DNA from: Escherichia coli
GTDB taxonomy: Bacteria; Pseudomonadota; Gammaproteobacteria; Enterobacterales; Enterobacteriaceae
Assembly: GCF_044647545.1 (NCBI RefSeq)
Contig: NZ_CP172818.1
DNA length: 64,000 bases
Reading direction: 5' to 3' (one strand)
The notes beneath the pieces were generated by a model that made no database searches, had not been told where the DNA came from, and saw nothing but the letters and a program-made list of their open reading frames with translations. Shown here one piece after another: positions 1,130 through 50,549 of the stretch (its first letter is position 1; each line of letters opens with the position of its first letter). The position numbers and the translations under genes are program-made.

Positions 1130-3319
1130 TCAATGTCGTCTAATACCGAGCGCGCGCCTGATAAACATCTGATCAACGTACCCAATCGATCTACTCCAAA
1201 TGTCCTGAGTATCCCGAAGATACTGGCTCAACTCATCCACATCAGCCTCGTCGGAAAATTCCAGCAAGTCTACCAGTCGGTGTAACGTCTGAATGGGAAT
1301 GCCAATCTCTTCTAAGGCATTGACACCTGGTGGTAGATGGAAACTTTCGAACGCCAATTTGACATGTGTGTAATCGACTTTGCTGCGTATACCACGCTTT
1401 ACAGCGTGGTGTTTAACTACATCCTCCATCAAGCTGAGCACCTTAGGTAGGGTATAGCCGAAGGTATTGGTTATGAGCTTCAAATCATTGTTGAGGGCAA
1501 TGGAAAGAGTACGTTTCTCCCCTTCAGAAATCCACTGTCGTGCATAATCGATCTGATTTTTCAGATATTCCGAATAACTTTCAGCACTTAAATAGCCGGC
1601 AAGTTTTGCGATCATGACATCCGTAGGCTTAACAGGGACCCCATTGCGACTGAACGTATGGGGAACCAGTCTGGCAATGATCTTTGCAAAGGTCTTGAGG
1701 AAGTTTGTCGCGGGAGTCCAGTGAAACACTAACGAGGAAAATTCGTTATCGTCCATCATCTCGAACATGCTTTGCAGCATTTCGAACTGCTCGACACGGA
1801 AGTACGAATGCTTCTTCACAAGGTCGATGGAAACACGGTCGTTTATGAAAACCTCATCAAAGCGATCCTGTGAAAACTCGGACAAGTGGTCTGGTTGAAC
1901 GCTGGCTAACAGGTTGATTGGGGTATCAATGCCCTGAATACCGAGCGGAATATCCACCTCTTGATTGAGATTGTCTTCCGGGATTTCCTCCAGGCAAAAG
2001 ATTTTGCCGACGAAGTGAACGCCCATGCGCCCGGCGCGACCTTTGATGTTCCCATGGGTGAATTTGTCAATGCTGCGAGTTCCATCGCGGTTGTCGTAGA
2101 TCACAACGTTCTTAGCGATAGTGTTGACTCCTTCAATGATCGTGGAGGTGCAGAGCAAAAAGCGCAGTTTTCCAGCATTGAATTGGTCGGCAGTGTATTG
2201 CTGCAGTGCCCTCGGTAGCGCGCCAAAATGCAAGCCAATACCGTTTCTAAGGGCGACTGTGTAATCCCAGTCGGCATCGAACTCTTCGCTGACCCAGTCG
2301 ACATGGGGATTCTCAGTCGGAGTGCCATGCCCAAGCCTGATCAGCTCGCGCGCCACCAGGCCCGCAACAGTTGGTGACTTGCAATAAATGATCGTTGCGT
2401 CGACACATGCGTGCGCGATTTCCCCCAGCGCTTTGAGCTTGGCTTTGTCGTCATTCGCTTTGATGCCGAACGTCTTAACATCTAGCGCGACTGTATTGAA
2501 GTCGGTAGAAACGAAAGTATGCGGATATCCAAGTTTTTCGAGACCGCGAATGCTGTTAACGAACGGTCCCGTCAGGTAAAACTGCCTGGAGACCTTAAGC
2601 AGTTTGCTTAACGCAATGTTGAGCTCGATGACTCGTTCGTCTTGATGATCAATGTCCCCGCTTTTCAGTTGTCGGAACGCCAACTTGTAAAACTCGTCAA
2701 TGACGAAGAGGTCAATGTCGACGATGTCGTCACGCTCGTTCACTCGCTCCTGAGTTAACACATAAACAGCCTGATCGGAATGGCACACTTGGGAACTGTG
2801 GTGGATGATCTGATATCGGTCACCGAATCGCTCTTGCAGTCGGCGACGGGTTTCGTCGGCAAGAGCCACGGTTGGAACAACCAGAACAAGCCGTTTCAAA
2901 GTTCCCATGCCGAGCAATGAATCGACGATTGCACTTTTGCCCATGCTTGTAGGTGCACTCAGCACCACGTTTTGACCAGACTTGAGCAGATCGAATATGT
3001 GGAACTGCATTGAGTGGAAAACATAACCATCCGAGAATGGCGTCCGGTATAGCTCAAGCACCCTCAGGTCATCCGGTGTCAGGCTGGTGAACTCCTTTTT
3101 GAGATACGGGAACAAACCTGATTTTCTCACCATATTTTTCAAAATTGTGGTGTGCTCGGAAAACCGCTCGCGCGAATCGAGAGCTCGCACGATCAAGTCC
3201 CGTCCCAAGTCATACGAAACAGGGTTAGACAACAGCTTGTTAACCGCAAACAGATAATTGAACGATGAGAAGTCCTCACCCTGCAGGCTATGTTTCGCCT
3301 GTTCATAGATCTCTGTCAT
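1130..3319 (-). CDS. yfjK: SF2 DEAD/DEAH-box helicase, 729 aa (probable AbpB)
   Basis: 729-aa ORF; Walker A APTSMGKS, DExx-like VIDEF, helicase C-terminal motifs TSTIIEGVN and GRAGRMG visible in the translation; overlaps upstream yfjL by 4 bp. Confidence 0.85.
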   Translation of the reverse strand: MTEIYEQAKHSLQGEDFSSFNYLFAVNKLLSNPVSYDLGRDLIVRALDSRERFSEHTTILKNMVRKSGLFPYLKKEFTSLTPDDLRVLELYRTPFSDGYVFHSMQFHIFDLLKSGQNVVLSAPTSMGKSAIVDSLLGMGTLKRLVLVVPTVALADETRRRLQERFGDRYQIIHHSSQVCHSDQAVYVLTQERVNERDDIVDIDLFVIDEFYKLAFRQLKSGDIDHQDERVIELNIALSKLLKVSRQFYLTGPFVNSIRGLEKLGYPHTFVSTDFNTVALDVKTFGIKANDDKAKLKALGEIAHACVDATIIYCKSPTVAGLVARELIRLGHGTPTENPHVDWVSEEFDADWDYTVALRNGIGLHFGALPRALQQYTADQFNAGKLRFLLCTSTIIEGVNTIAKNVVIYDNRDGTRSIDKFTHGNIKGRAGRMGVHFVGKIFCLEEIPEDNLNQEVDIPLGIQGIDTPINLLASVQPDHLSEFSQDRFDEVFINDRVSIDLVKKHSYFRVEQFEMLQSMFEMMDDNEFSSLVFHWTPATNFLKTFAKIIARLVPHTFSRNGVPVKPTDVMIAKLAGYLSAESYSEYLKNQIDYARQWISEGEKRTLSIALNNDLKLITNTFGYTLPKVLSLMEDVVKHHAVKRGIRSKVDYTHVKLAFESFHLPPGVNALEEIGIPIQTLHRLVDLLEFSDEADVDELSQYLRDTQDIWSRSIGYVDQMFIRRALGIRRH

Positions 3320-40361: not shown

Positions 40362-40390
40362 ACCCCGAAGCCTGGCTTCGGGGTTTCTTC
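40362..40390 (+). terminator. Intrinsic terminator after ygaM
   Basis: CCCCGAAGCC-TGG-CTTCGGGG hairpin followed by TTTCTTC. Confidence 0.7.
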
Positions 40391-40584
40391 ATTATGCCCG
40401 GCAAAAAAACACAAAAATCCCCTACCCCGTTGAGCCATTCATCGGTGGCGTAATCAATCTAAAATTCCCATATCTTGTGTGGTTGAATCTTTTTTCAACT
40501 ACATCTAGTATCTCTGTATCAACAGAGAGACAACCCGACGCGTATCATCGCGCCGTATCTTCATTTTAAACGGAAATACGAATC

Positions 40585-46994: not shown

Positions 46995-47987
46995 ATGCGA
47001 CATAGCGTACTTTTTGCGACAGCGTTTGCCACGCTTATCTCTACACAAACTTTTGCTGCCGACCTGCCGGGCAAAGGCATTACTGTTAATCCGGTTCAGA
47101 GCACCATCACCGAAGAAACTTTCCAGACGCTGCTGGTCAGCCGCGCGCTGGAGAAATTAGGTTATACCGTCAATAAACCCAGCGAAGTGGATTACAACGT
47201 TGGCTACACCTCGCTTGCTTCCGGCGATGCAACCTTCACCGCAGTGAACTGGACGCCACTGCATGACAACATGTACGAAGCTGCCGGTGGCGATAAGAAA
47301 TTTTATCGTGAAGGAGTATTTGTTAACGGCGCGGCACAGGGTTACCTGATCGATAAGAAAACCGCCGACCAGTATAAAATTACCAACATCGCGCAACTTA
47401 AAGATCCGAAGATCGCCAAACTGTTCGATACCAACGGCGACGGTAAAGCGGATTTAACCGGCTGTAACCCAGGCTGGGGCTGCGAAGGTGCGATCAACCA
47501 CCAGCTTGCCGCGTATGGACTGACCAATACCGTGACGCATAATCAGGGGAACTACGCAGCGATGATGGCTGACACCATCAGTCGTTACAAAGAGGGTAAG
47601 CCGGTGTTTTACTACACCTGGACGCCGTACTGGGTGAGTAACGAACTGAAACCGGGGAAAGATGTGGTCTGGTTGCAGGTGCCGTTCTCCGCACTGCCGG
47701 GCGATAAAAATGCCGATACCAAACTGCCGAATGGCGCGAATTACGGCTTCCCGGTCAGTACCATGCATATCGTTGCCAACAAAGCCTGGGCCGAGAAAAA
47801 CCCGGCAGCAGCGAAACTGTTTGCCATTATGCAGTTACCAGTGGCAGATATTAACGCCCAGAACGCCATTATGCATGACGGCAAAGCCTCAGAAGGCGAT
47901 ATTCAGGGCCACGTTGATGGCTGGATCAAAGCCCACCAGCAGCAGTTCGATGGCTGGGTGAATGAGGCGCTGGCAGCGCAGAAGTAA
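46995..47987 (+). CDS. proX: Glycine betaine-binding periplasmic protein, 330 aa
   Basis: ATG at 46995 ([11 protein letters not shown]... signal peptide). Confidence 0.9.
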
Positions 47988-47990
47988 TTT

Positions 47991-48060
47991 TTATTCGGGC
48001 GGATAAGGCGTTTTTGCCTCATCCGCCGCTCTGTACACAATGCCTGATGCGACGCTGGTG
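47991..48060. repeat. REP-like palindromic elements after proX
   Basis: GGCGGATAAGGCG...GCCTCATCCGCC-type units. Confidence 0.5.
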
Positions 48061-48178
48061 CGTCTTATCATACCTACAAACCACACCGCACATTTCAACA
48101 ATCTATCTTTCATCCCATATTCATCAACATCCGCTATTATTGATTTCCAGCTTAATCATCACCTGATGAACAAAAATA

Positions 48179-49363
48179 ATGACTAAACCTAATCATGAGC
48201 TTAGCCCGGCGCTGATCGTGCTGATGTCTATCGCCACCGGTCTGGCGGTAGCCAGTAACTATTACGCCCAGCCATTGCTCGACACCATCGCGCGTAACTT
48301 TTCCCTTTCCGCCAGTTCGGCAGGCTTTATTGTTACCGCCGCGCAGTTGGGCTATGCCGCAGGTCTGCTGTTTCTTGTTCCCCTCGGTGATATGTTTGAA
48401 CGCCGCCGCCTGATTGTCTCGATGACCTTACTGGCGGCAGGCGGCATGTTAATCACTGCCAGCAGTCAGTCGCTGGCGATGATGATCCTCGGTACGGCAT
48501 TAACCGGTTTATTCTCAGTCGTGGCACAAATTCTGGTTCCGCTGGCAGCGACGCTGGCTTCACCGGACAAACGCGGCAAAGTGGTCGGCACCATTATGAG
48601 CGGGCTGCTGTTGGGGATCTTGCTGGCACGGACCGTTGCCGGATTGCTGGCGAGTCTCGGTGGCTGGCGAACTGTCTTTTGGGTCGCTTCGGTATTAATG
48701 GCACTGATGGCGCTGGCGTTATGGCGTGGTCTGCCACAAATGAAATCAGAAACCCACCTCAACTACCCACAGTTGTTGGGTTCCGTTTTCAGCATGTTTA
48801 TCAGCAATAAGATCCTGCGCACCCGCGCGTTGCTGGGCTGCCTGACCTTTGCCAACTTCAGCATTCTCTGGACCTCAATGGCCTTTTTGCTTGCCGCTCC
48901 ACCTTTTAACTACAGCGATGGTGTAATTGGTCTGTTTGGGCTTGCGGGAGCTGCCGGAGCGTTGGGCGCTCGTCCGGCGGGCGGTTTTGCCGATAAGGGC
49001 AAATCACACCACACCACAACTTTCGGCCTGCTGCTGCTGTTACTTTCATGGCTGGCTATCTGGTTTGGACACACTTCTGTACTGGCGCTGGTTATCGGCA
49101 TCCTGGTGCTGGACCTCACCGTGCAGGGGGTGCACATCACTAACCAGACGGTAATTTATCGAATTTACCCCGATGCGCGTAATCGCCTGACTGCAGGTTA
49201 CATGACCAGCTACTTTATTGGCGGTGCTGCCGGTTCGCTAATTTCAGCCTCAGCCTGGCAACATGGCGGTTGGGCTGGCGTTTGTCTGGCTGGCGCGACG
49301 ATTGCCCTGGTTAACTTACTGGTCTGGTGGCGAGGTTTTCATCGTCAGGAAGCCGCAAATTAA
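48179..49363 (+). CDS. ygaY: MFS transporter, 394 aa
   Basis: Intact 394-aa ORF with multiple transmembrane segments. Confidence 0.8.
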   Translation: MTKPNHELSPALIVLMSIATGLAVASNYYAQPLLDTIARNFSLSASSAGFIVTAAQLGYAAGLLFLVPLGDMFERRRLIVSMTLLAAGGMLITASSQSLAMMILGTALTGLFSVVAQILVPLAATLASPDKRGKVVGTIMSGLLLGILLARTVAGLLASLGGWRTVFWVASVLMALMALALWRGLPQMKSETHLNYPQLLGSVFSMFISNKILRTRALLGCLTFANFSILWTSMAFLLAAPPFNYSDGVIGLFGLAGAAGALGARPAGGFADKGKSHHTTTFGLLLLLLSWLAIWFGHTSVLALVIGILVLDLTVQGVHITNQTVIYRIYPDARNRLTAGYMTSYFIGGAAGSLISASAWQHGGWAGVCLAGATIALVNLLVWWRGFHRQEAAN

Positions 49364-49486
49364 GCAATCAGCAACCGTTTTCGTGGCTTTACACTTATAA
49401 GGGTGTTAAGAAGCCCATCAGTCTGATAAGGTTAAGATATTCATTCAGTCTATTTATAATATTAACAATCGTTAAGCGTACACTCT

Positions 49487-50224
49487 ATGGAAAGCCCTAC
49501 TCCACAGCCTGCTCCTGGTTCGGCGACCTTCATGGAAGGATGCAAAGACAGTTTACCGATTGTTATTAGTTATATTCCGGTGGCCTTTGCGTTCGGTCTG
49601 AATGCGACCCGTCTGGGATTCTCTCCTCTCGAAAGCGTTTTTTTCTCCTGCATCATTTATGCAGGCGCGAGCCAGTTCGTCATTACCGCGATGCTGGCAG
49701 CCGGGAGTAGTTTGTGGGTTGCTGCACTGACCGTCATGGCAATGGATGTTCGCCATGTTTTGTATGGCCCGTCACTGCGTAGCCGTATTATTCAGCGTCT
49801 GCAAAAATCGAAAACCGCCCTGTGGGCATTTGGCCTGACGGATGAGGTTTTTGCCGCCGCAACCGCAAAACTGGTACGCAATAATCGCCGCTGGAGCGAG
49901 AACTGGATGATCGGCATTGCCTTCAGTTCATGGTCATCGTGGGTATTTGGTACGGTAATAGGGGCATTCTCCGGCAGCGGCTTGCTGCAAGGATATCCCG
50001 CCGTTGAAGCAGCATTAGGTTTTATGCTTCCGGCACTCTTTATGAGTTTCCTGCTCGCCTCTTTCCAGCGCAAACAATCTCTTTGCGTTACCGCAGCGTT
50101 AGTTGGTGCCCTTGCAGGCGTAACGCTATTTTCTATTCCCGTCGCCATTCTGGCAGGCATTGTCTGTGGCTGCCTCACTGCGTTAATCCAGGCATTCTGG
50201 CAAGGAGCGCCCGATGAGCTATGA
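49487..50224 (+). CDS. ygaZ: AzlC-family branched-chain amino acid exporter subunit, 245 aa
   Basis: Sequence recognised as YgaZ. Confidence 0.85.
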
Positions 50225-50549
50225 GGTTTTGCTGCTTGGGTTACTGGTTGGCACGGCGAATTATTGCTTCCGCTATTTGCCGCTGCGCCTGCGTGTGGGT
50301 AATGCCCGCCCAACCAAACGTGGCGCGATAGGCATATTGCTCGACACCATTGGCATCGCCTCGATATGCGCTCTGCTGGTTGTCTCTACCGCACCAGAAG
50401 TGATGCACGATACACGCCGTTTCGTGCCCACACTGGTCGGCTTCGCGGTACTGGGTGCCAGTTTCTATAAAACACGCAGCATTATCATCCCAACACTGCT
50501 TAGTGCGCTGGCCTACGGGCTCGCCTGGAAAGTGATGGCGATTATATAA
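50214..50549 (+). CDS. ygaH: AzlD-family exporter subunit, 111 aa
   Basis: Overlaps the ygaZ stop; small hydrophobic protein. Confidence 0.85.

Follow-up and report, generated by a model that had tools for sequence, protein, structure and literature searches.

An intact, probably ancestral ygaY transporter gene in Escherichia coli and the apparently lineage-restricted pseudogene of K-12

An intact ygaY allele in the window

The gene at positions 48179..49363 (+ strand) of the window, the whole 64,000-nucleotide stretch of DNA that was analysed, is very probably an intact and ancestral allele of ygaY that encodes an MFS secondary transporter of the YnfM subfamily, with the K-12 pseudogene as its lineage-restricted derivative. 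The open reading frame (ORF) runs from ATG to TAA and codes for 394 aa. Its length is divisible by three, and no internal stops were found. The coding sequence is 100% identical at the nucleotide level, with coincident start and stop, to that of WP_022646012.1, annotated by PGAP as "MFS transporter" in FDAARGOS_497 and ECONIH1. Other ST648-like strains share this protein and have no in-gene difference from the window.

A hidden defect in the ORF was looked for and ruled out: stops and frameshifts are absent, and just three lineage-specific substitutions (N159S, D210N, and I305V), all conservative, set the window protein apart from five other alleles and orthologues. Measured against full-length orthologues, the gene has neither the frameshift nor the premature stop that would mark a pseudogene, and its 394 aa are the length found in the outgroups. 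A sequence-only reading of this DNA had described ygaY as an intact 394-aa MFS transporter, a description that the uninterrupted ORF and an MFS_1 score of 143.4 bits bear out. ygaY is already documented as a gene, with its annotation, family membership, and pseudogene status in K-12; thousands of genomes carry the intact MFS transporter annotation, and the K-12 status is curated. An intact ygaY tells nothing special about the window strain.

A single 7-bp lesion in the K-12 gene

The same reading had named ygaY as a pseudogene in K-12, and this is how it is recorded. In MG1655 the gene (b2681; UniProt P76628, formerly split into b2680/b2681) is a "pseudogene" in the curated record (2808316-2809493, 1,178 bp), and in another K-12 genome PGAP annotates the same stretch as "MFS transporter, frameshifted." The locus is shared with the window and lies between proX and ygaZ. 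Alignment of the two genes, proposed earlier as a check, gave 95.6% nucleotide identity with a single indel, a 7-bp deletion in K-12 at ORF positions 255-261. The window has at this site a perfect tandem 7-mer, GGCGGCA twice, at 48433..48446 (+; alignment columns 255-268) in the context CT-GGCGGCA-GGCGGCA-TG, which codes for part of LAAGGM (residues 85-90) in predicted TM3. K-12 is short of one GGCGGCA/GCGGCAT unit and keeps the other, whereas both are present in the window, where the ORF is complete. The loss of one unit from the TM3 coding region would be explained most simply by replication slippage.

The K-12 gene is not intact. The frameshift brings a stop at codon 89, the first frame contains 14 in-frame stops, and what is left are an 88-aa ORF and a 305-aa ORF. 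Function of these fragments is unlikely, since the protein would be split within predicted TM3. The new TGA in K-12 overlaps with what was the Met90 ATG (ATGTTGA; 3261-3267 of the K-12 locus sequence), and the 305-aa ORF starts where the 88-aa ORF ends, an arrangement like that of translational coupling.

Putting one 7-bp unit back into the K-12 gene gives a stop-free ORF of 394 codons. The repaired gene differs by 1 nt from the intact allele of E. coli C, and its product differs from the window protein at 4-5 of 394 residues. Because repair restores a clean ORF 1 nt away from that of E. coli C, the K-12 pseudogene is young and carries a single lesion. The E. coli C allele (1267-2451 of its locus sequence) has a G-to-T change at ORF position 262 (window 48440) that gives Gly88Cys and turns the repeat into GCGGCAT twice, followed by G. 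As the repaired K-12 gene is 1 nt from this allele, the GCGGCAT (G88C) background is probably the immediate progenitor of the K-12 deletion.

A different lesion was found in S115, an E. coli urine isolate. Its ygaY (1007-2172 of its locus sequence) is annotated as frameshifted and has a 19-bp deletion (ORF positions 252-270) that removes the whole 7-bp repeat region. This deletion is independent of that in K-12 and was found in the S115 genome only.

Frequency of intact and deleted alleles

Frequencies were determined in 5,426 complete E. coli genomes, a collection rich in laboratory strains. ygaY is present in 5,418 of them and at least 80% of the gene is covered in 5,413. A 120-nt junction probe identified the K-12 deletion junction in 353 genomes (6.5%; at least 99% match over a 120-base span). 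Both repeat copies are present in 5,056 genomes (93%; 90-95% match over a 127-base span), a figure that counts two repeat units at the lesion site and not the whole-ORF integrity of each allele. Eight genomes matched this probe at 80-90%, one of which was examined individually, and none matched at 95-99%. The same 353 genomes were recovered with a 43-nt probe that seeds only on the deletion junction. Another 789 match the junction probe over positions 1-29 only, as the Gly88Cys variant would; the one inspected, E. coli C, is intact.

All 19 junction genomes that were sampled are 4.58-4.70 Mb in size, and several are named K-12/MG1655 derivatives, laboratory constructs, or transconjugants. A deletion allele widespread in natural E. 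coli is ruled out by these data (353/5,426, with every sampled one K-12-like). Judged from the genomes probed, the frameshifted ygaY is a peculiarity of the K-12 lineage; the intact state is the norm and K-12 the exception.

Orthologues, polarity, and selection

Escherichia and Citrobacter have ygaY as a chromosomal core gene, located between proVWX and ygaZH. Full-length orthologues were identified in E. fergusonii (97% amino acid identity, 394 aa), E. marmotae (97%), E. albertii (94-95%, 393 aa), and Citrobacter (92%, 394 aa), and also in Shigella. The gene order proV-proW-proX-ygaY-ygaZ-ygaH-mprA(emrR)-emrA is common to the window, K-12, E. fergusonii, E. albertii, and Citrobacter. At the lesion site E. 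fergusonii, E. albertii, and Citrobacter all encode LLAAGGM, with codons that form no perfect repeat; among the species compared, the perfect 7-mer repeat is confined to E. coli. With full-length outgroups that have LLAAGGM at the site, the intact frame is ancestral.

Values of dN/dS (Nei-Gojobori) are 0.03-0.05 in all informative pairs, including window versus Citrobacter at a dS of 0.97, and point to strong purifying selection on ygaY. The allele is called functional because of this selection. The suggestion in the sequence-only reading that the strain keeps an ancestral functional allele stands on this footing, ancestral from the outgroups and functional from dN/dS, and it extends well past this strain, as about 93% of the genomes keep both repeat copies at the lesion site. 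ygaY joins the orphan transporter genes that are out of reach in K-12, as this reference strain has only a young pseudogene with one lesion. Repairing the 7 bp, or turning to a strain such as E. coli C or an ST648-like one, would make YgaY accessible.

Protein family and predicted mechanism

The translated product matches Pfam MFS_1 (PF07690) in two stretches with 143.4 bits against a cut-off of 33.4 (E = 1.1e-41), and it also passes the cut-off of MFS_4 (31.1 versus 26.3). BLASTP aligned it end to end with K-12 YnfM (~409 columns, 26% identity, E = 3e-19). In TCDB, YgaY (P76628) has the number 2.A.1.36.3 within the Acriflavin-sensitivity (YnfM) family, and its substrate is given as "Unknown" (PMC5417439). 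Full-length homology and the TCDB assignment both place YgaY in the YnfM family (TCDB 2.A.1.36). YnfM (b1596), which gives this family its name, shares the MFS fold and a similar length with YgaY but is encoded at another locus with other neighbours. Being a paralogue rather than an orthologue, YnfM gives no basis for assigning a substrate to YgaY.

Among proteins of known structure, a sugar efflux transporter (6kki) gave a weak, full-length match to residues 13-383 (E = 8e-4), and the glucose transporter GlcP (4lds) gave a weak match to the N-terminal half (E = 1.4e-7). Both are very distant and would indicate only the fold and a general alternating-access mechanism. A crude Kyte-Doolittle hydropathy profile has 11 clear peaks, and a weaker stretch at ~335-355 is the likely 12th helix; the end-to-end alignments with YnfM and 6kki are consistent with 12 helices. 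The strict motif A (G-x-x-x-D-R/K-x-G-R-R/K) is unmatched; the TM2-TM3 loop, where the motif is expected, has the variant GDMFERRR (residues 70-77).

Named NCBIfam equivalogs (Bcr/CflA, EmrD, Cmx, MhpT, etc.) reached at best 36-77 bits against cut-offs of 200-900, and none was passed. Assignment of a substrate was given up, as the NCBIfam scores are below cut-off, the PDB sequence matches are too distant, and the literature says "unknown." No transport phenotype of YgaY (acriflavine sensitivity or resistance) was found in the literature. At the family level, YgaY would be a proton-coupled carrier of about 12 helices that works by alternating access like other MFS proteins, presumably expressed in strains with the intact allele. 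Since the named proteins closest to it export drugs and sugars, small-molecule export is the more likely direction.

Neighbouring genes and expression signals

Upstream of ygaY is proX (46995..47987, +), which codes for the glycine betaine-binding protein and corresponds to a 993-bp coding sequence in FDAARGOS_497 that ends 191 bp before ygaY. No promoter-like (sigma-70-like) site passed a scan of this 191-bp proX-ygaY spacer (47988..48178, +), and the Shine-Dalgarno sequence of ygaY is weak (…GATGAACAAAAATAATG). Over its last 60 nt the spacer has the same sequence in K-12 and E. fergusonii and almost the same in E. albertii. A part of the spacer at ~47995-48080 (…GCCTGATGCGACGCTGGTGCGTCTTATCATACCTAC…) resembles a REP/BIME-type palindromic element.

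Downstream, 123 bp separate ygaY from ygaZ-ygaH (49487..50549, +), identified from the ORFs and from annotation in relatives as encoding an AzlC/AzlD-type L-valine exporter. A sigma-70-like site, TTAAGA-17-TATAAT (10/12 matches), was found in this gap at 49432-49460 (+). Its position suggests that ygaZH has its own promoter and is transcribed independently of ygaY.

The K-12 ygaY locus serves as a neutral integration site (PMC11566304, PMC12134211), and the Keio ygaY deletion serves as a pseudogene control (10.1101/072470). What is used as a neutral "ygaY pseudogene" site in K-12 is, in almost every E. coli outside K-12, a conserved gene under selection.

Alternative explanations

An intact ORF could be cryptic, either silenced (e.g., by H-NS/StpA) or untranslated, in which case its intactness would have no functional meaning. 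The scan of the upstream spacer and the weak Shine-Dalgarno sequence agree with this, as does work in K-12, where an H-NS bridge joins the proVWX downstream regulatory element (DRE) to the ygaY locus and ygaY transcript levels are low and StpA-insulated (10.1101/2023.07.10.548347). No cost of ygaY loss, or phenotype from it, is reported for K-12 in the literature. The same study nevertheless detected K-12 ygaY transcripts, which rose modestly after hyperosmotic shock (bioRxiv 10.1101/2023.07.10.548347), and the dN/dS of 0.03-0.05 is held from E. coli to Citrobacter (dS ~1) together with length and synteny. A permanently silent gene would not stay so preserved, and we regard a cryptic ygaY as quite unlikely. 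In a more specific proposal, the perfect repeat turns the TM3 region of ygaY into a hotspot of recurrent loss of function, hit by two independent deletions, and YgaY might have a condition-specific role tied to its conserved neighbours (e.g., osmolyte- or amino-acid-related export with ProU and YgaZH). This is speculative and, on balance, quite unlikely; if the condition-specific role were real, K-12 would lack a piece of physiology present in most E. coli.

The repeat raises two further readings of the K-12 allele. It might act as a contingency (phase-variable) switch, with K-12 caught in the OFF phase. A 7-mer that is perfect, within the gene, and perfect only among the E. coli alleles compared would suit such a switch, as would two independent frameshifting deletions at one spot (7 bp in K-12, 19 bp in S115). 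The one-copy allele, though, is limited to 353 K-12-like genomes, no three-copy allele occurs in the 5,426 genomes when probed on the window-type (GGCGGCA) rather than the GCGGCAT (G88C) background, and the S115 lesion is private and does not change the number of units. Known phase-variable loci, moreover, use many more than two repeat units. A switch is very improbable on these grounds. The polarity could also be reversed, with the single copy of K-12 ancestral and the 394-codon ORF produced by a 7-bp duplication that fused two frames. Only the formal symmetry of deletion and duplication speaks for this, and the outgroups refute it: E. fergusonii, E. albertii, and Citrobacter are full-length and encode LLAAGGM with non-repetitive codons. 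The full-length protein can also be aligned with other MFS transporters over its whole length, and frame 1 of K-12 has its 14 stops past the lesion. We give a duplication next to no credence and retain the reading of an ancestral intact gene from which K-12 lost one repeat unit.

Lineage of the window and other sites

The 20 kb around ygaY are ~100% identical to ECONIH1, MS6198, FDAARGOS_497, and "strain ST648," and 98.9% identical to SMS-3-5, which indicates that the window strain is ST648-like. We presume that this lineage belongs to phylogroup F, like its ST648-like relatives. Compared with others in the species, the window ygaY allele has diverged unusually far (dS = 0.145 versus both E. 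coli C and K-12), as would fit a deep-branching (phylogroup F-like) lineage. An ST648-like origin accounts for the finding that just 63 of 5,418 genomes share the allele at 99% identity or more.

ygaQ (26254-28506, +) is an uninterrupted ORF of 750 aa in the window. It had been called intact together with ygaY, correctly so, and the MG1655 ygaQ pseudogene (b4462) has the same length of 2,253 bp with three in-frame stops.

At window positions 40387-40395, in the ygaM/nrdH gap ~7.8 kb upstream of ygaY, nine bases (CTTCATTAT) replace a 1,875-bp cassette of two genes, coding for a MocR/PdxR-like PLP-dependent regulator and a carboxymuconolactone decarboxylase-family protein. The cassette is present in ECONIH1 and, judged from an identical 21,867-base span, in other close relatives. 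A 121-nt probe for the cassette-less junction reached at least 80% coverage in 0 of the 5,426 complete E. coli genomes. The junction could be a strain-specific deletion, could reflect a source genome outside the collection, or could be an artefact.

At ~57650-58149 of the window, self-BLAST and the ECONIH1 annotation identified four near-identical tRNA-Arg genes in tandem followed by a tRNA-Ser gene. This array is the ordinary argQZYV-serV cluster.
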